This document shows, in pieces, positions 9,795 through 51,711 of a DNA stretch of 54,855 nt; position 1 is the stretch's first letter; each line of letters starts with the position of its first letter. The notes under the pieces were generated by a model. The model was not told the origin of the DNA. It did no database searches and saw nothing but the letters and a program-made list of their open reading frames with translations. Both the position numbers and the translations under genes were made by a program. Source of the stretch: Girardia tigrina (lineage: Eukaryota); assembly GCA_001938485.1 (NCBI GenBank), contig MQRK01231233.1, positions 40,534-95,388 on the forward strand, read 5' to 3'.

Positions 9795-10645
9795 AAAAAA
9801 CAATAAAGCAATTTTAATTTAAAATTTTTATTGGAAAACATGTTTCGCCACTTCTGTGACATCGTTAGTTCTGTAAAAAAAGTAAATCGCTGTTGTAGTT
9901 ATAGTCGGAAGACCATTGCGTTACCATGTCCTACATCAGAATACTCTAATATGATTGGACGAATCACTTTGCACGTTTAAACAAGGTTTATGAAACTTAA
10001 TTAACAGTGCTTCAGTAATAATCATTTCATAGTTACAGTCAAAATTACTAATAAAAACCCGAAAATCACTCTCATTTACTTCCTGTGAGTATCATAACAT
10101 TTTTTAATGTGATCTAAATTAGAACTTTTTCTACTTGATTGGGTATTCTCAGAAATTCTAGTACGGAGGTGACGATTTGTCTCTCCAATTTACAAGGATT
10201 CACACTAGTGACATTTAAACTGGTAGACTAAATTTGCTTTCATACTCAATTGTGTTATTGATTTATTGAAAAAGTAATCAGATATTTTGTTAGTGGGGAA
10301 AACCAATTTTGTTTTAACGCCTACTGGAGACTATTTTTCAAAAACTCTTAAAATCCTTTGATCCTTCAGAGTATGGAAATTTTAAGAAAAGTTTCTTTGT
10401 GTTAGTCTCTTCCTCAGAAGCATGTTATTAAACACAGCTTATTAAGTCACAGCTTGTTATTAAACTGGCAAATTGATTTTTCTAATCATATTAGAGTAGT
10501 CTGATGTAAGACATGGTGACGCAATAGTCTTTCGACTATAAATACAATAGCGATTTACTTTCTTACAGAACTGACGATGCCACAGATGTGGCGAAACATG
10601 TTTTCCAATGAAAATTTTAAATTAAAATGGCTTTATTGTTTTTAA
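9795..10645 (-). mobile_element. Penelope-like element 3' fragment with an inverted pseudo-LTR
   Basis: The minus strand encodes a decayed GIY-YIG segment (KANLVYQFKC..CES..IGETNRHLRTRISE). About 9795-9972 and 10468-10645 are inverted copies, each with a hammerhead-like core. Confidence 0.85.
10568..10605 (+). ncRNA. Minimal hammerhead ribozyme motif
   Basis: GAA-CTGACGA-T-GCCAC-agat-GTGGC-GAAA-CATG-TT-TTC. The inverted partner at about 9835-9872 has a mutated core (CTAACGA). Confidence 0.7.
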
Positions 10646-33379: not shown

Positions 33380-34950
33380 AACTCATCCATTAAAAAATAT
33401 ATTTAGTGACAATATATTTCGACGGATCAACCGTCATCTTTAGGTCACTAATTAATAATCGATTCACCTGTATATAAATACAAAAATGATGATTGTGTAA
33501 TCGATTTCATGAAATCATGCTAATCAAAAATTCTCAATAAGCTGGTTGAGACTGCTGATTGAACATTGATTTTAGGGCAACGTGACCTAATTAACAATGC
33601 TTCACACGACACTCTCCCAATAACTGTCAAAATGCTTACACAGAATTTTGAAATTATCAATATTAACATTACATTTACATTTTTTCTATGTTCTGCAATA
33701 TTACTCTTACTCTCTAGATATATCTAGATTCAAAATTAAAACATTTATTATCATCTGAATTTTTGTGTCGTGATAGTTTTGAATTTGCTGATTTCATTTC
33801 TAATTATAAAGTACAGAGTGAAGATGAATTTATGGTTTCTTTTGACATCTATAGTTTATTTACAAATGTTCCTTTGGTTGAAACTTTGAATTTGTGTTGT
33901 GATCTATGGAAAAATAATCATTCAGAACATCATATTGTCGACGAGGTTGGGTTTCGAGAGTTATTAAGCTTTGCAACATCAAATGTTCATTTCCTTTTTA
34001 ATAATGAGTGGTATAAGCAAAGTGATGGGGTTGCTATGGGTTCACCGTTAGCAGCAACGTTAGCTTCTGTTTTCCTTTCAAAGATTGAAAATAAAATTAA
34101 ATTGTTTGATGGAGATCAACCTTTAGTATATAAAAGATATGTTGATGATATATTTCTAGTTTTTAAAAATCAGGCTGATGTACTTCCATTTTTAATTTTT
34201 ATGAATTTGTTACATCCAAGTGTTACTTTTACAGTCCAAAATGAAAGGAATTGAGTCTTACCTTTTCTGGATCTTTTGGTTGAAAGAAAATCTCTTAGCT
34301 ACGAGACTGGAATTTATAGGAAGCAAACTGATACAGGTTTATATACTTCACCGGACAGTTTTTGTGAACTGAAGTATAAAAGAAACATGATTAAAGGTTT
34401 AATTTATCACTCCTGGTCGTTGTCTTCCACTTTTGTTAAATCTGTAGAAAGTGTTAATAAACTAAGTTCCTTGTTAAATCAGAATGGTTATTCTAAATCT
34501 TTTCTGGAAAAATTAATAAAGGAAACAGTAGATAAAATACTTTTAAAAGTTATTTCGAAAAATCAGAGTTTGGCTTCTCCTGATGGATCGAAAAGAGAAA
34601 TTGAAGTATCATTATATAGTAATAATGTGCCCAAATATTGCTTAACTGTACCTTATTCGGAAGGATTTAAAAACATTAAAAATGGATTGTTAAAAGTAAC
34701 GAACAATGAATTAAATTTAAAAATTATATCACGATCTCATATAATTCAAAATATGTTCAGTAATAAATCTATTACACCTTTAACACTTTGTTCTGATATT
34801 GTTTATGAGTATAAGTGTAATGGGTGCGATGCCACATACATTGGAGAGACTGCCCGTCATCTCTGTAAACGAATTCAAGAACATGGTCGAAAAGAGAGTA
34901 AGAGTAATATTGCAGAACATAGGAAAAATATAAATGTAATGTTAATATTG
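33380..34950 (+). mobile_element. Penelope-like element (RT plus GIY-YIG), 5'-truncated with an inverted 3' copy
   Basis: RT motifs SFDIYSLFTNVP, GVAMGSPL and RYVDDIF; GIY-YIG segment VYEYKC..C..YIGET.R.L..RIQEH; in-frame stop at 34254. About 33380-33680 is an inverted 3'-end copy with a hammerhead-like motif. Confidence 0.93.
33403..33451 (-). ncRNA. Minimal hammerhead motif with a core mutation
   Basis: TTAGTGAC-CTAAAGA-T-GACGG-ttgat-CCGTC-GAAA-TATA-TT-GTCACTAA: perfect 8-bp stem I, G-to-A change in the core. Confidence 0.65.
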
Positions 34951-37714
34951 ATAATTTCATTTAATGAGCTGATTATTTTGTTTTTTTTGAAAATGTATTG
35001 TTTTTGTAAATAAACATTAAATAAAAATTTTCGTTCTCAATCATGAAAGTAACATTTTTCAACGATCATCAATTTGGAAAAATCGTTGTTGAATTGAACG
35101 AAAGAATCAAAAAATGCGCTTATCACTAACTTTCAAAGAACTCTTTGACCTTCTCAAAGGTCAAATTTCCTTCTTCTTTGGAAATCACTAAACATCAAAT
35201 AAAACGGAAATCTTATATCGTAAGTATGCATAAAATATTACTGTAATGTTATTAATGAAAGTAGCTTCTATTAAGTCCTACTTATTAATAATAAATAATA
35301 AAAATTTTATACAAAACAAAGTGTTTTATTGTGTTAAATTTTTTTAAAAATTAATCTAATTTTTAAATAAATGTCAAAAAAAATCTATTTCTTAAATTAC
35401 CCTATGGTTAATTTGTTAACATTAATAATTTGTTTGTTTTTGTTAAATGAATTAATTATAAATTTGTTTTACTGTTAAAATACTTTTTCAAATTTTTTTC
35501 GATTCACTTTAGTCTATTATTATAATAATTATAAATAAAGAAATTTATTCAACACATTGCTGTCAATGTAAGGTTTTCCGTGACAAGATGCTATTCCCGC
35601 GGCGCGGCGTAGATTTCCGCGGGCCGCGGTAAACAGAGGGCCCTGCTTATTATTGAGTGTTAATGTTTTAAAAGAATGAAATTTTAATGATATTAGTAGG
35701 TAGTGATCAAAATAAAAATATAAAAGCATGAGTATTTAGCATTGTGGAGATTCGAGACACGAGGAAAGTCTCATAAAACATTTAAAATTGTGGAAATAAA
35801 TTAATGAATAAATAAATCCAACGACAAATTACAGAGAAATTTGAAAATCAAAAATGTATATTTTTTATTATCCAAAACAAAATTTTGCTGAATATTAAAA
35901 CAAGATTGTTTTTTAAATTAATTTTAAGAATTAATTTAATTTGTTGATCCACTTTATTTTTGAATCCCATGATAAAGAAGCAACAGTAAAAACTGGGTAA
36001 AAAGTTCTTTTTGGTAAAAATTTATTGCTGGTAAGAATTTATTGAAGGTTAGAATTTATTTATGGTTAAAAATTATTAATGATAAAAATTTATTGATTAT
36101 AAAAAATTTTAATAATTTATTAGACTCATAAATTGTTTTGGGATGTGGAAATTCACGATAAAAAATTGTTGATTAATGGTCACTACAAGCATAATTACCA
36201 TAAATAAGTGAGGTAATTACATGGACAATTTTTAGATGGTATGAAGGATGGTGTCATTGGTTATAATCCTAAGGATTAGTTAAATTCGAATTAGAAATTG
36301 TAAAGTTATACTTCAAATGCGTCAAAATCCTGTTACAGCATTGAGTCTGTAGTGGTTGATTATTTTGTTGACGCTTAATTTTTTGATACAAATTCATGAT
36401 TCTCGCACATGAAAGACATTTCAGCTCAAAATATTCCTTCACATGTTTTTAATCTCTCAATCCCACATGATTTTTCCACATATTTATTCTCCAAAAATTA
36501 TACAAATGACACTAATAATGTTAATTTATTAAATATTTGTTCCACATTACAAATATTATTTTGTGGGTGATCACAAATGACTTGTTCGGTAATGAACCAC
36601 TCACACTTGATATGATCGGCCCTTGAACCCGGCGAAGAACTAATGATCCGTATTTCAGATAAGAGAACTGTCGGCCTATCCCTATAAACAGTAAAGGACA
36701 AATCTTGATCACCCACGTACATCCCATCTTGATTCACAAAATGGGAATAATTTGATATTTATACACAAACGGATTCAAAGCGATTTAGACACTGTAGCCT
36801 CTGTAGACAAATATGTATGATTCTGTACATTAGTCATTAAGTGAATGACAATCCCATGGATACTTTATGGCATATTTAATCATATTTATTCATTAAATTA
36901 TTGTTGATGTTTATAATTAAATTAATTTATTATTTATTCCTGTTTTGATGTGATTTGGCTTTCACATAATCGGGAAACAATATGCACGATAATGAGGCTT
37001 GGATTATTTTGTGAAAGAGAATTGAAAAATAATTCATTCCAAAATTGATAAATCTTATTTTTTCAATTTGAGACAAATGCTGAAAGCAATTTAAAATATT
37101 TTGTGATAAAAATTGGTTCATGAATTATTCATAAATTCTATTTTATTTTAGTTCGTATGGAGAGTGATTTCGTTTACAATTTTCTAGAAAAAAATAATAT
37201 TTTTATTTAATTAGAGACTTACACAAATAAAATATTTTGTGTGGATAAAGAGAGCGAAAAGAATTAATGAAAGACATTTTCCCACATGATTAATTAAAAC
37301 TGCAATATTCCATCATATTCTTTCCTTTGTTGGACATTCCTTATGCGTTATTTATATTTTCGTTAATCATTTACGACCAACGTTATTTATATAAAGTATA
37401 TTTCATTGTGTTTCATTACTACTTCTAATTTTCTCCTATTTACGGATAGAAAAGTTTACTGTATTTTTAAGAATTCTTTACTATTATTCGTATTTGATTT
37501 TCCTCAATTATTTTTATAAATACTAATCAAATATTTCATATCCTCTGGTAAAAAGTATGTAAGTAATAAGGTAAGAAAATATAAACAATATTTAGATTAC
37601 TAATCTTATCTAATTCGCATAATATACAATATAACAAGAAATTTAAAAAACAATGGCAATTTGAAATCATAAAACCTTTTAGCCTTCATTTTTAACATTT
37701 ATTTTAGTAATTAA

Positions 37715-42736: not shown

Positions 42737-43391
42737 GTAAGATTTTTGATGACTCTATACATTTATTCATTCATTTGTGAATTGCTATTTCAACTTATGA
42801 ATGAAAAAGCAAATTTTTTTTAATTTGATTTTTATTTTTTAATCATTTAATAAACGTTGTGTTTATTTATTATAAAGGTAAAGAGAACTCATTGAGAAAC
42901 TTGATCTCAGGCTTATAATTGTGTTAAAAAGTAAACCTGGGAGAGTTTATGTTAGGATTAAAAGTTTATTCTGTTAATTGTCAACATTTATTTATTATCT
43001 CACAATACATACCTTTTTATAAAATATTGTATAAAGCATTATAGTTTTAGATATATCTAAGAGATTATAGTTTTCTAAAATGACTTTTAAGAGTAAAGTG
43101 TTCCTCTGGTAAATCGATGGACGTCGGCCCTCTCACATAAGTTTATATATTACTACAGCAAATTTTGTATAAAAGTGATGAAGTAAATAACAATTCTTTC
43201 TCCAAGACATAATTCAAGATTTGACATTTCTGACATTAAGAACACTTCATAAATTGCTGTTAATTGAGAACATAACAAATATTTTGTTTGTGTCATTAAA
43301 AAGAATGTTAAGTTTATGTTAATACTGTTTCCAGATAATTTGAAAATAGAAGTTTTATACAAAAAATTAAAAAATGATGGCAACTTATTTT

Positions 43392-44639
43392 TAAAAACAA
43401 AAATACGCCATTTGTTAAATAGACATTTAATTTTCAAGAAAATTAATTTCGACGGTATAACCGTCATCGCCAGGTCTCAAGAAACAAAATGAATTTTAAA
43501 TCTGCTTATATAGGCAAGCAGTGGTTATGACATCATTGGATTATTATGTCATCTAAACACGCTTAATAGGGTTTTCAAGAGACTCGTTTGCACATTAATC
43601 TTAGGATCTAAAGATCTGATATAAAGTTCTTCACAGGCCACCCTCTCTCAATAGTTTTTAAAACGAGTACACAGAATTTTAAAATCATTCATGTTTATGT
43701 TTTCGTTCGACTTACAACCCTTTCTGTGTTCTCCAATATTACTCCAACCTACATTCCGACCATGTTCTTGGATTCTCCTACAGAGATAACGGGACGTCTC
43801 TTTTGTGAATCTCGATACAAATATAATATGATTAGAGGACTAATTTTTCGATCTTGGGCATTATCATCAACTTATACAAAAAGGTGTGATAGCATTAACC
43901 AATTAATTAAATTATTGAATACAAATGGTTATTTAAAATCAATTGTTGAAAAATTGACCAAAGAAACAGTTGATAAATTTATTAATGAACCGATTAAAAT
44001 TAGAATCAGCCACTTTAAAATACGTTTTAAGCATTCCATATTCCGAAGGATTTGGTCAATTTGAACGAGCAATTTTAAAATGTATAAATAATGCCTTTAA
44101 TTTTAAAATAATATCACAAACATATAAAATCCAAACAGTATTTTGTAATAAATCTCCAACCCCATTTGGATTATGTTCGGATCTCGTATATAAATTTACA
44201 TGTAATGGATGTAAGGCCACATACATTGGAGAGACGTCCCGTCATATTTGTACGAGAATCCAAGAACATGGTCGGAATGTAGGTGGGAGTAATATAGGAG
44301 AACACAGAAAGGGTTGTAAGTCGAACGAAAACATAAACATGAATGATTTTAAAATTCTGTGTACTCGTTTTAAAAACTATTGGGAGAGAGTGGCCCGGGA
44401 AGAACTTTATGTCAGATCTTTAGATCCTAAAATTAATGTGCAAACAGGTCTCCCGAAAACCCTATTGAGCGTGTTTAGATCACATAATAATTCAATTATG
44501 TCATAACCACTGCTTGCATATATAAGCAGACGTAAAATTCATTTTTTTTCTTGAGACCTGACGATGACGGTTATACCGTCGAAATTAATTTTCTTGAAAG
44601 ATAAATGTCTATTTAACAAATGGTGCATTTTTGTTTTTA
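43392..44639 (+). mobile_element. Penelope-like 3' fragment with a ~410-bp inverted duplication
   Basis: GIY-YIG ORF at 43970-44506. 43392-43800 is the reverse complement of about 44229-44639, with hammerhead-like cores in both arms. Confidence 0.93.
44551..44597 (+). ncRNA. Minimal hammerhead ribozyme motif
   Basis: TTGAGAC-CTGACGA-T-GACGG-ttata-CCGTC-GAAA-TTAA-TT-TTCTTGA; stem I is imperfect. The inverted partner at 43434-43480 has CTGGCGA. Confidence 0.65.
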
Positions 44640-45262
44640 GAAGTTTTATAAGTATCTTTTTTAATAGATTTAACCCTAGAAAGACAAGCAAAAATATAGC
44701 ATTGTATACCAGAGGCATTGTATGCCCTCTTTTTATTTTATATTAAAGAATATTACAAAATTATATTCAAAAAAAATATACTAACATAGCAATTTGATTT
44801 TATTTTTTTACTTTCTATTTGAAGGGACCTTTTAGGTTCGTTATTTTTCTATGGTTAAAAAGGTTTCTGGATTTACAATCGAGCTCCGTTAATAACACAA
44901 CATTTAATTGTGTTTGAAAAAGTATTGGAGGATCAATTTGTGCAGTATACTCTATGTTATTCGTTAACAGTATGTATTGAGTTCATCACAATCAGGTCCA
45001 GCAACCATATTGAAGATATCAAAACTGTATTTCGATTCATTACAAATATTGAAAAGCTTCAATAGCAATATCTACCCGAATAAGAAGATTGAAAGAAAAT
45101 TAAACATACATTTGATTTGGTTCACGAACACGACGTCTAATTTTCTGGATGACAGTATTAAAACAGTATCAGATGCTTTGGAAGTTATCGGCATCCCATC
45201 ATCAATTTCCAGAACCATTTACGAAATGCAAATTAATCTTGATGGTACGTTGGACTGTAATA

Positions 45263-47090: not shown

Positions 47091-47505
47091 GTAAATTTGT
47101 TAGTGAATTACACTAATGTGTTCATTTGATTACATTTCCATTCCTTTACTTATATTTTTGCTTCTTGCGAATTATTAATTGTACTTTGAATCTTTTTCAT
47201 TATTTTTTGTGTAACTTGATATTAAAACAATTAATTTCACCGAACAAGCTGTAGAACTGAACTAGTCAAACATGGTTTGCATAATTAGTCTTAATTAAAG
47301 CTATTCAGGACTCTTCATACGGGGTATTGTACGACGTTTGAAAATCCCCTTCCAATTAGTATCAGGGTCTTCTATTCAAACGTAAAAACTGTAATAACTC
47401 TGCTTTTTTAACCGGTATTCTCTAATTATTGCATATTTCCTCAAATATGATGCCTATTTATGTTCACTTCATTCTGATGTAATATGTTATGATTGTTTTT
47501 TAGTC

Positions 47506-47534
<29 letters not shown>

Positions 47535-47537
<3 letters not shown>

Positions 47538-48937
47538 TTAACGCATTTTAAAAAAAAACAACGTTGGACATATTTCGGTCACAATCTTTAATCAGCTTTA
47601 GCAACTTTGATTGGGTTGTAATTAATTTTTTTCTATTATTATTAGTTTTTTAATAATTTATTTAAATTTATAATATAAAATGGTAACAAAAGTTTCCAAC
47701 TTTTTGGTTAATATTTTAATTAATTTTATTTATTTTTTTAAAAGATATTTTATATTGAGGTTGCTTTTCTTGCATATTTTGGATGTTAATCCATTGGTTA
47801 TAGTGTCTTATCAGCAATGATTCACAATACAACCTCTCACAATGTGAATCAATATTCTTCAGAAAAATAGAAAATTCATCTTTTGAAATATCACGAAAAA
47901 AGAAAATTTTAAATTAGTAAATTTTTCTGACCAAAATGGTGTTTGATTATTTAAAAGACTTTCCATTGTTTTTTCAGTACCTTATATATATATATATAAT
48001 ATTGAGACTTGTGAACGCAAGTGTAATATTTTGAAAATATAATTTGATTAAACCTTTTTTTTATATAATTATTGATCATATTTCGATGTATTAAAAGACA
48101 AACAATTTGAATTGAAAAAGGCTACAAATATTTACATTAATAACAATAAGAAATTAAAAATGATGAAGAAAAAACATAACATTAGACAAATTATGTACAG
48201 ATGTACGAGTTAAGAAACAATTAAGAGAAGAAAATACTGAAGAATACAAATAAATCATTAAAATTCCATATTCTAAAGGATTTAGAGCGTTTAAGAAGAG
48301 TATTTGTAGAACAATAAAGTTTCAAAGTTTCCTTTCAAACAAATCGAAAACAGTTTGTGGTTTGCAAGCTAATCTGGTATATAAATTTAATTGTCATGGG
48401 TGTCAAAACTCATACATCGGAGAGACAAATCGTCATCTCAAAGCCCGGATTAGCGAGCACTCGCAAATGAGTCGATCGAGAAAGGTTCTTGATCATTGGT
48501 TGTGTTGTAAGGATAGAACCTCATCCATTTCAAAAGATGAGTTTTCTGTTCTACAAAAGGGTTTTGATTCACATTACGAACGACAGTTTTGTGAATCTCN
48601 NNNNNNNNNNNNNNNNNNNNNNNNNNNNNNNNNNNNNNNNNNNNNNNNNACGAACGACAGTTTTGTGAATCTCTACTAATAAGACACTACAACCCATCAA
48701 TTAACATTCAGAATGGGCAAAGTAAGGTTATTTCAATACTTAAAATATTTAATTAAAATATTTTTGCCGTTATTACCCAATAATACTTTAATAAATAATA
48801 ATATTTAATTCGTAATATACCTTTTAAAGTTAATATATCTATTAAATTTGTATTAAAATTGCTGATGATGATGTATATCAACATCGAAACATGTCCAATA
48901 ATTATATAAAAAAAGCTTTAATCACATCATATTTTCA
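47535..48937 (+). mobile_element. Penelope-like 3' fragment with an inverted partial copy
   Basis: GIY-YIG segment (LVYKFNCHGC..SYIGETNRHLKARISEH) at 48362-48679. About 47780-47890 is an inverted copy of about 48525-48720. (TA)n tracts lie at the boundaries. Confidence 0.85.
48858..48899 (+). ncRNA. Minimal type I hammerhead ribozyme motif (intact core)
   Basis: ATTG-CTGATGA-T-GATGT-atatca-ACATC-GAAA-CATG-TC-CAAT: stem I ATTG/CAAT, 5-bp stem II, palindromic minimal stem III, GUC cleavage triplet. Confidence 0.85.
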
Positions 48938-49023
48938 ATATATATATATAAAGTTTCTTTAAATCAAATGGCAATTTCGTCAATAAACAAAAATAACACC
49001 ATTTTAATTTTAAATTTTTATTC

Positions 49024-49061
49024 GAAAACATGTTTCGCCACTTTTATGGCATCTTCAGTTC
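49024..49061 (-). ncRNA. Minimal hammerhead ribozyme motif
   Basis: GAA-CTGAAGA-T-GCCAT-aaaa-GTGGC-GAAA-CATG-TT-TTC on the minus strand. Confidence 0.7.
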
Positions 49062-49250
49062 TGTATTTAATTAGAAAGTTATTGTTTATGTAGAAAGATG
49101 ACCATTATGTCACAGTGTGTTACGTCAAAATACTCTAATATGATTGGACGAATCACTTTGTACATTTATACTAGGTTTAAGAAACTTTATCAAGAGTGCT
49201 TCAGTAATTGTCCTTTCATAATTGTGATCAAAGTTACTAATCAAAACCCG

Positions 49251-49494
49251 TTAGAGTTCAAACATATGGCTGAGCCACATCCGATGCGTTGCCACACCAG
49301 ATAATAATTTTGCCTCTTAGGCACTGAATTATCATTACTTCTGGGCGAGATTCAGACTTAGAGGCGTTCAGTCTTAATCTCTCGGATGGTAGCTTCGTAC
49401 CAATGACCTTTCGATCAAGCACATTTACCAGTGATCCGAATCTGNGGTTCCTCTCGTACTGAGCAGAATTACCATTGTAATGACGCTTTTATAT

Positions 49495-49548
<54 letters not shown>

Positions 49549-49595
49549 ATTGGTGGGTTAACAATCCAACGCTTTGTGAATTCTGCTTCACAATG
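49251..49595 (-). rRNA. 28S rRNA 3'-region fragment (pseudogene) embedded in a Penelope inverted-repeat unit
   Basis: Reverse complement of conserved LSU sequence: CATTGTGAAGCAGAATTCAC, GGGAACGTGAGCTGGGTTTAGACCGTCGTGAGACAGGTTAGTTTTACCCTACT, the sarcin-ricin loop AGTACGAGAGGAAC (49447-49460) and CTGAACGCCTCTAAGTC. 49251-49325 is inferred to be the following variable segment. Confidence 0.93.
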
Positions 49596-49653
49596 GTTAT
49601 CTTCACGTAATGGTCATCTTTCTATATAAACAATAACTTTCTAATTAAATACA

Positions 49654-49691
49654 GAACTGAAGATGCCACAAAAGTGGCGAAACATGTTTTC
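49654..49691 (+). ncRNA. Minimal hammerhead ribozyme motif
   Basis: GAA-CTGAAGA-T-GCCAC-aaaa-GTGGC-GAAA-CATG-TT-TTC. Confidence 0.72.
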
Positions 49692-49784
49692 AAATAAAAA
49701 TTTAAAATTAAAATGGTGTTATTTTTGTTTATATATATATATATAAAACAAAAAATAGCCATTTTTCCAAACAATTATTTTTAT

Positions 49785-49828
49785 TTAGCAATACTAGTTT
49801 CGCCATATTGGCATCTTCAGTTGACTAA
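49785..49828 (-). ncRNA. Minimal hammerhead ribozyme motif (separate family)
   Basis: TTAGTCAA-CTGAAGA-T-GCCA-ata-TGGC-GAAA-CTAG-TA-TTGCTAA on the minus strand; GUA triplet; flanked by (TA)n tracts. Confidence 0.75.
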
Positions 49829-51711
49829 TTGAAATTTCAGATTTAAGTCCCTTTTATATAGCGGGACCCTTATATATATATATATATATATATACATATG
49901 TGTGTGTGTTTATAGATATAATAAATAAGACAAGATATTATTTTAAATAAATATATCACTAATGCTTTTCATTTACAATAACTGACATTCGATGTTGTAA
50001 AATACAGGAAGTTAGTACCATTCAAATTAAAATAACTGATCCGGGGAGGATAATTTAACCAGTTATCAGATCAAAGAACTGAGTCTGTATTACTGGTATC
50101 GCCTGACTTGGTTATTTAAAATATTATTTAAAAATATTTTTCCTACATTAAGTTAAGGCCGAATAAAGGATGTCTAATTGTTAGGAGCCGGTTTGGATAA
50201 TATTCGATTAATATTCAACTAATAAATGCGTTGAAAATGGTCGTATATCTTCCATGGAAATTTATCGTAATTCCGCTGAAGTAATTTATCGTTAGTTCAA
50301 AATACTCATCAATATGAGGCAGCGCTATAGAAAATGCATGCAAGTTGTAAAATTATATAATAAATTTATTAATAATACACTGAAACTAGTTTTTATGTGG
50401 TCCTTTTTTATGCGATCTCATATGCACAAATAAAAAATCGCATAAGAACAGGTTTAGTGTAAAAATAATAATTATTTGGAATTATATCTTTTTCAAAATT
50501 TGACCGAGAATTCATAATTATCAAAATTTTATTAATGATATTACAAATTTTCATCTCCTTCTCTTTACATACTTTTTTCATTTGCATTTTCATTTCTCTT
50601 TTTTAAAAAAAATCTATTTTCATTTTTCAAATTTCATTTATTTAGTTAATCCCTTTTTCTTTTAAATTTTAAAATAATTGTAATTATTTTTAATTAAATT
50701 ATTAAATTGTGTTTATATTTATTTTGTCTGTTATTTCTTTTATTAACCATCATTAAACTTTTTTTCGATTTTTTATTATTAATTTTTAATATTTTTGAAA
50801 TATTTTTTTTTATTTTTTGTGTTTATAAAAATTTTAAATTGCTGTTTTTCTTAAAAAATTTATGTATATTTTTTAGATTTTTGAATTTATTTTGTTTTTT
50901 TTATTTTTTAAAATAATAATATTAGATTTGAATGTTCCAAAGAGTTTATTTTGTGAGATGAAATTTTAAATAACTCATTATAATTATCATTATAATAAAA
51001 GTAATTATTATTGTTAGAAGACAACGATTCTACTCTAAAATATATTTATTAAACTTACATACAAACATGCATACATAGTTTATATATTAAATAAAAGGAG
51101 AGTCAAAGTTTAACTCTGTTCTCGAACCGGTAATAGTTATAATACAAATTTAGAAATATTCTAAAGTTGTTGATTATGTAATATTTTATTTAATTAATTT
51201 TAATTTAATTTTGTAATATCTCGCAATTATTATTAACAACATTATGATTTTGTGAACATTTTCAGAACATTCATCACAATAATAATAATATAATTATTAT
51301 TATTAATTAATGATATGTTATTAAATTGTAAAATTACATTAACTTATTATTTAGATAAATATATAATATTTATTAATAGTGTCGTGTAATTACATGATGT
51401 TGTATATGGGTCTATCGAAAAGATCTAAAAGAAACATTTATGTCATCTGCTTTTGTAAATGATGAACATGTTCTAGTCGCATCGGTCATTCTAATTCTTA
51501 CATCAAAGTGCCGTTAAAGCGCATTTTCCGACCGCTATATTTGGCGGTTAATACTTATTCTAATACGATAATGCAATTATAATTAATATGTATTAAAAAT
51601 TTCATGAATGTCGTTTATTTGCATAATGGTATTAATAATTAAATGATTATTCCATGTTTGTGGATCTTTTTGTAATTTATGTCTGTCTATTTCATATTTT
51701 CTTGTTTTCAG

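Follow-up and report, generated by a model that had tools for sequence, protein, structure and literature searches.

An intron of the neuron navigator gene of Girardia tigrina carries what reads as a single-copy, 5'-truncated insertion of a Penelope-like element (PLE) with a piece of 28S rRNA at its inner joint, and this rRNA most likely entered during the PLE insertion itself. The unit runs from 48951 to 49731 and consists of the 3' end of a young PLE, a 28S rRNA piece of 345 nt and a PLE arm in inverted orientation. The mechanism that we favour, and that a preliminary description of this DNA had proposed, is a jump of the PLE reverse transcriptase (RT) from its own RNA onto rRNA; we hold it tentatively, as somewhat short of an even chance. 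Positions are those of the window, the whole 54,855-nt stretch analysed here (positions 40534-95388 of contig C231233, MQRK01231233.1), which comes from an assembly of 1.43 Gb in 255,254 contigs.

Anatomy and setting of the cassette

The window holds two inverted arms (48983-49110 and 49605-49732) of 128 nt and 97% complementarity. The cassette had been placed at 48983..49732 and is real in the sequence, with its left end 32 nt further out, at 48951, owing to a PLE tail (Table 1). On the minus strand, Rfam matched 49332-49483 to LSU rRNA, sarcin-ricin loop included (71 bits, E 3e-18), and BLAST against other genomic 28S pieces extended the match to 49251-49595, in agreement with the roughly 345 nt of 28S that had been described from 49250. 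This piece, which includes one N, spans the peptidyl-transferase region and the sarcin-ricin loop and reaches into a 3' expansion segment. Its 3' joint is clean, with a 1-base overlap with the PLE and no filler, while its 5' joint shows a short imperfect match between arm and 28S and a filler that resembles both and was likely templated locally. An inverted PLE 3' terminus does end the cassette, as had been noted, with the amendment that the 9-nt filler precedes it. One of the differences between the arms falls at a site that is polymorphic in the PLE family (11/28 copies), and the two arms may derive from different RNA molecules; elsewhere in the family, too, the arms of a single insertion often differ by 2-3% (L014, L025, L029, L040). 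The product has no intact ORF and shows no sign of further copying.

Table 1. Features of the cassette and its surroundings, in window coordinates
Feature	Position	Strand	Basis or remark
3' end of young PLE family, 300 nt	48951..49250	-	about 97% identity to 29 other copies
Content of the long arm	48951..49250	-	end of putative GIY-YIG-type coding region, 3' repeat and 33-nt tail (48951-48983)
Predicted minimal type-I hammerhead core, long arm	49025..49058	-	motif scan
28S rRNA fragment, 345 nt plus one base common to PLE	49250..49595	-	Rfam and genome search
9-nt filler at inner joint, between 28S and right arm	49596..49604		sequence; likeness to both neighbours
Inverted PLE arm, 127 nt, without tail	49605..49731	+	4 mismatches to long arm
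Predicted minimal type-I hammerhead core, inverted arm	49657..49690	+	motif scan and fold
Left (TA)n flank	48938..48950		preceded by 3' end of another hammerhead-bearing repeat (core 48862, +)
Right (TA)n flank	49732..49744		followed by inverted end of a third hammerhead-bearing repeat (core 49820, -)
Neuron navigator intron, 4,621 nt, phase 0	47091..51711	+	PF25408 split across two exons; GT at 47091, AG at 51710-51711

The cassette is located in a TA run between the ends of two other hammerhead-bearing repeats. The host gene was identified as a neuron navigator on the plus strand by its Pfam domains (PF23092 and PF25408) and its GT/AG intron; since the 28S lies on the minus strand, the navigator pre-mRNA contains antisense rRNA, as had been claimed. 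In that pre-mRNA the cassette would fold into a long hairpin, and it is probably neutral intronic debris, the single intronic copy itself probably doing nothing. At least three PLE families are nested in this one intron between 47500 and 49870, where they meet at TA runs, and further inverted PLE copies occur in the window at 9795-10645, 33649-34959 and 43389-44642.

In a motif scan both arms retain the letters of a hammerhead core (CUGAnGA...GAAA, enclosing a 5-bp stem; start at 49058 on the minus and at 49657 on the plus strand), which bears out the earlier reading of the arms as predicted hammerheads. The further claim of a ribozyme-bounded unit does not follow. The two predicted cores are on opposite strands, so that any transcript holds only one of them in sense, and the predicted arm-arm duplex is worth about -182 kcal/mol, compared with -13 to -20 kcal/mol for each arm folded alone, a pairing that would bury the hammerhead core; with opposite-strand cores and paired arms, no RNA from the cassette is ribozyme-bounded. 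A retrozyme identity was ruled out, as there are no two same-strand hammerheads and the arms pair. The navigator pre-mRNA does contain several minimal hammerhead cores in sense, at 48862 and 49657 and also at 10571 and 44558 (+); those at 48862 and 49657, separated by 795 nt, have an identical palindromic loop and might in principle form a dimer, with the arm hairpin competing.

The source PLE family and its insertion habit

The family of the arms is young and abundant. A genome search returned 881 candidates, the best copies being 97-98% identical, and a 22-mer from its hammerhead has 2,082 matches genome-wide. The left part of the cassette is a PLE 3' end, as described, and not of the family found at 9795-10645, which shares only 77-81% identity with the arms and is a diverged relative. 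Upstream of the point at which the cassette's copy breaks off, other copies have a frame with the motif letters ...YIGETNR...EH...DH..., and a YIG, a CxxC and two His can be read by eye in the frames of L021 and L036. Pfam finds RVT_1 in L021 (E 2.6e-13), in sequence common to other family copies, and no GIY-YIG match on the L021 frame; a similar element in the window, at 43958, gives a GIY-YIG match below the cutoff (E 0.0012). On these sequence features, we provisionally assign the arms to an EN+ Penelope-like element.

The outer anatomy of the cassette is ordinary for this PLE. The arm family has two 3' termini, 33 nt apart, and all 27 other two-armed copies (13/13 among the 29 best matches and 14/14 among 80 further stretches) pair one long with one short outer end; the cassette obeys this rule, with a tail on its left arm only. 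The family's 3' flanks are AT-rich (0.954, n=29, against a background of 0.716; p 2.5e-12), like the TA run around the cassette. Other copies are truncated within about 40 nt of the cassette's break point, and four (L023, L029, L038, L040) have arm and body lengths as in the cassette and no insert. Inner joints of the family show overlaps of 2-4 nt or fillers in most cases read, with short fillers like that of the cassette in L020, L029, L036 and L042. What sets the cassette apart is that 28S occupies the exact truncation/inversion joint, where body and inverted arm normally meet.

A single chimera

The unit had been thought either a one-off or the founder of a 28S-derived non-autonomous family, and possibly one product of a general capture system. 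It is a one-off. Each of the two 24-mers across the 28S/PLE junctions occurs once in the assembly with up to 2 mismatches allowed, and a genome search with the joined region revealed no second chimera among the 40 scored of 1,245 candidates. From the 28S side, the family arm is present at 1 of 115 distinct 28S loci (drawn from 158 fetched), and a PLE end lies within 30 nt at 2 of the 115, the cassette and L101, when five PLE-end references, all from the window, are used. From the PLE side, 28S was absent from all 29 best-matching copies and from the 78 parsed further stretches, and Rfam, applied to the 29 copies and to 40 of the 80 stretches, reported neither rRNA nor snRNA, only microRNA matches below the cutoff. 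None of the 27 other two-armed copies showed an RNA cargo of the classes covered by these checks (28S, rRNA, snRNA), with N gaps in the interiors of 6 of the 27. These copies are 13 of the 29 best matches and 14 of the 80 stretches, which come from the first 100 listed of the 2,082 matches (14 two-armed, 43 with no terminal arm, 21 uninformative, 2 unparsed). The interiors of L231 and L267 hold 144-238 nt outside the reference pieces, alike by eye, which is probably another part of the PLE. With single-copy junctions and no cargo in 27 copies, we reject a 28S-derived family and find general cargo capture by the arm family unsupported; nor do the free 28S pieces described below lie in the AT-rich target of a PLE.

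Dispersed 28S pieces

The 28S in the cassette belongs to a large population, hundreds of dispersed pieces being present in the assembly (examples are L083-L111 and L141-L180). A 22-mer just 5' of one 28S stem-loop, which we take to be helix 97, has 280 matches genome-wide, against 59 for a 22-mer placed 8 nt further 3' and 54 for one placed 630 nt upstream; the last count is probably somewhat too low, since most of its matches needed the single mismatch permitted. The 71 loci fetched from the 280 reduce to 50 distinct ones; in these, 43 of the 47 3' ends that could be used lie inside a 10-nt window (the motif sets a lower bound on where they can lie), and 13 of 45 usable 5' ends lie near a U-tract. 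Most free pieces stop about 290 nt short of the 28S 3' end, with no tail. Of 41 pieces that run longer, 13 were scored as ending no more than about 20 nt from the modelled mature 3' end, at least 2 of these visibly running on, and 4 more were scored beyond it, which suggests an RNA origin without establishing it for every piece. The flanks inspected show no A tails.

These pieces do not insert in the manner of the PLE. Their flanks have an AT content of 0.728, against a background of 0.716 (p 0.51), so the PLE endonuclease is unlikely to have placed them, and the PLE as maker of the free pieces is unsupported. A flanking repeat of at least 9 nt is found at 9/100 pieces, against 1/300 controls, and templated joints at 10/100 per side, against about 4% of controls. 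The single exception to their placement is L011 (C236939): its 28S piece, which reaches the modelled mature 3' end, lies within a TA run bounded by PLE ends, next to the two other PLE families that also border the cassette.

Alignment separates the dispersed pieces into two sequence types, suggesting two rDNA paralogue families. The cassette carries the less common type among the pieces aligned and differs from the column majority of 8 same-type pieces by 6 substitutions and 8 deleted positions. Free 3' ends also form a secondary cluster, in which 13 nt hold 7 of the 24 interior ends (scan p 0.014, leaving out the cassette); the 3' end of the cassette's 28S lies in it too, as would suit a template of RNA that has preferred ends.

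Other repeats are also among the partners of 28S. At L077:1381-2760 (C216475), at least 1.1 kb of sense 28S is joined precisely at the 5' terminus of an abundant LINE of APE type (1,220 candidates); 11 other fetched copies of this LINE follow an ACAAT-ending flank, with no 28S, and L077 is likely a second rRNA-retroelement chimera. 18S rRNA is joined to 28S pieces in the same sense in L170 and inverted in L074. At L101:790-1139 (also L105 and L174) 28S directly adjoins the final 60 nt of a different PLE family with hammerheads; the remainder of that copy lies about 540 nt upstream, and the 28S probably inserted into an older PLE copy. One 28S insertion with the same flanks occurs in four contigs (L064-L067, L103 repeating L067), either because it was copied along with its host repeat or through redundant assembly.

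Origin of the chimera

Our proposal for the origin of the cassette would begin with the PLE protein nicking both strands of a (TA)n run. Priming at the two start sites would then yield two cDNAs, of which a single one includes the 33-nt tail; the long cDNA would stop after 300 nt and continue onto a 28S rRNA molecule through the 1-base overlap, the short one would stop after 127 nt, and the inner ends would be sealed by microhomology-guided end joining, leaving the 9-nt filler. In the in vitro work of PMC11167929 (accessible text), a PLE protein nicked both strands and extended them, the tail being defined by its two start sites, and the PLE hammerhead was dispensable for insertion. Of the origin put forward in the preliminary description, the PLE arms, the usual PLE inversion and capture in one event, which is likeliest given the tail asymmetry and the low chance of a later hit, have held up better than the jump itself, to which we would give slightly less than even weight. 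The accessible PLE literature covered offers no demonstration of template jumping by a PLE RT.

Position bears on timing. Across the genome, chance would place a later hit within 50-100 nt of such a joint 0.003-0.03 times, and one anywhere in an inverted copy 0.04-0.18 times, in an estimate that assumes 350-700 inverted copies (from 2,082 ends) and ignores fragile palindrome centres and other PLE families that would equally catch a reader's eye; these low expectations favour capture during insertion. As to mechanism, the clean 3' joint of the 28S, set against the filler at its 5' joint, can be read as one continuous PLE-to-28S cDNA whose far end was closed by end joining. Some observations carry less than they might seem to. 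The tail rule supports a single event for the arms only; free 28S pieces also have templated joints, so those of the cassette are not diagnostic; and their ability to insert without PLE help, as judged by flank AT, counts against the RT jump, as does L101 with its 28S piece probably interrupting an older PLE copy. That the 28S has the same sense as the PLE RNA had been offered as an argument, and has little weight, since the two PLE ends face outward and the statement would be true of either orientation. The missing target-site duplication (TSD) around the 28S is no more telling, being the rule in 91/100 28S pieces, which leaves the TSD test for a later insertion powerless. TA runs on both sides hide any TSD of the cassette, and neither an empty-site allele nor an allelic contig is present in the assembly.

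The closest competitor keeps the single event and changes the source of the rRNA: a free 28S cDNA or DNA piece made by another enzyme would have been patched between two PLE cDNA ends by end-joining repair. Free 28S pieces are indeed abundant (the 280 matches to one 22-mer), lack A tails, have a flanking repeat of at least 9 nt in only 9 of 100 cases, and lie in DNA of background composition or joined to other rRNA, such as 18S in L170 and L074. The cassette's 3' joint, with 1 base of overlap and no filler, is weak evidence to the contrary, as most inner joints of the family have overlaps of 2-4 nt or fillers. We consider such repair unlikely, if a serious contender.

Alternatively, a two-armed PLE copy may have come first, its palindrome centre breaking later and taking up 28S with loss of the old joint. 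Insert-free copies with the same arm and body lengths, the four named above, would provide the precursor, 28S pieces do occur inside other repeats (L064-L067, L101), and the absence of a TSD has no power against this history. It is opposed by the expected numbers of later hits, both at the joint and across the inverted copy, and by the youth of the family (about 3% divergence), which leaves little time; we judge it decidedly unlikely.

An assembly or library artefact joining three abundant repeats has to be considered because the assembly is fragmented, the 28S part includes an N, each junction occurs once, and the junctions are known from assembled sequence; two DNA sequencing runs contain 0.54 of the window's words and are uninformative on the junctions. 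Against it, the joints offer 1 shared base or a novel filler, which is not enough for a misjoin by overlap; the 28S has changes of its own, a short deletion among them, as a consensus built from rDNA reads would not; and the outer ends follow the family's tail rule. The junctions are therefore real-looking as far as their sequence features go, and we give the artefact a small probability. A fused 28S-PLE RNA that existed beforehand, by read-through from a PLE in rDNA or by RNA ligation as proposed for U6/LINE-1 and 28S/LINE-1 chimeras (PMC13174262, accessible text), and was then retrotransposed, is very improbable, as no second locus has the 28S|PLE junction in this assembly, from which rDNA arrays may be missing.

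Capture by an RT jump during PLE insertion thus remains our preferred reading of this locus, and the population of free 28S pieces raises a broader one. Hundreds of tailless pieces with one sharp 3' end and non-PLE targets point to a specific rRNA fragment templating at DNA breaks. Reverse transcription of one defined 28S fragment, about 250 nt long and ending at one stem-loop, might occur in this genome again and again, with the product pasted into DNA breaks. Targets would include unfinished retrotransposon ends (the PLE here and, at L077, the LINE of APE type) and other rRNA copies (18S), and the cassette would then be one snapshot of this process as well as genomic evidence of Penelope RT jumping onto cellular RNA. 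As a whole this is a speculative and somewhat unlikely synthesis. The genome-wide 28S hotspot is nevertheless a more interesting lead than the cassette, and may matter more.

Comparison with known systems

The comparisons that follow extend as far as the accessible text of each cited report. In its basic design, with a piece of cellular RNA joined to the 5' side of a retroelement 3' end, the cassette resembles the U6/L1-type chimeras. Human 28S/LINE-1 chimeras (n=18, median 269 nt, 83% sense; PMC13174262) likewise consist of a 28S stretch of a few hundred nt ahead of a truncated element, and like U6/LINE-1 chimeras they are rare one-off loci; template switching, RNA ligation or twin priming have been invoked to explain LINE-1 chimeras (PMC13174262). 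Unlike these, the cassette is carried by a PLE, has no poly(A) and, lying in a TA run, no definable TSD, and it is closed by a second, inverted PLE end, which is why orientation is not diagnostic here. SINE28 also consists of dispersed copies from the 3' part of 28S, but its copies reach the 28S 3' end, many with simple-repeat tails, whereas the cassette is single-copy (PMC4994717).

Among PLEs, the body truncated at its 5' end, the inverted arm, the one-sided tail of 30-40 nt and the AT-rich target are those of Penelope/Poseidon-type insertions with inverted pLTRs (PMC4209133, PMC3846280, PMC8557442, PMC11167929), and opposite-strand hammerhead pairs 100-700 bp apart are known from described PLEs (PMC4209133, PMC3846280, PMC8557442); the foreign rRNA piece at the inner joint is what those insertions lack. 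Non-LTR retrozymes are also hammerhead-bearing, PLE-related and non-coding, but they are tandem repeats with same-strand ribozymes, while the cassette has opposite-strand cores and one copy (bioRxiv 10.64898/2026.07.22.740005). In Adineta vaga, host genes and spacers are framed by PLE terminal repeats, so that non-PLE sequence between such repeats has a precedent; there direct pLTRs with a TSD enclose host DNA that contains introns, and here inverted arms enclose a short rRNA piece (PMC3846280). The accessible text of a review of transposable elements in rDNA makes no mention of Penelope (PMC10946416), and we found no report of a PLE-rRNA chimera in the literature searched, the scope of which excluded subscription journals and supplements.

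The PLE transposition cycle is poorly understood, and how the inverted ends form is an open question. Foreign RNA at an inner joint marks the order of events in a PLE insertion, and template jumping can be tested in vitro; if our reading is true, the cassette documents, at the level of the genome, that a Penelope RT is capable of jumping to a cellular RNA. 28S/LINE-1 chimeras and PLE-framed host genes were already known, and it is the combination of PLE and rRNA that is apparently new.
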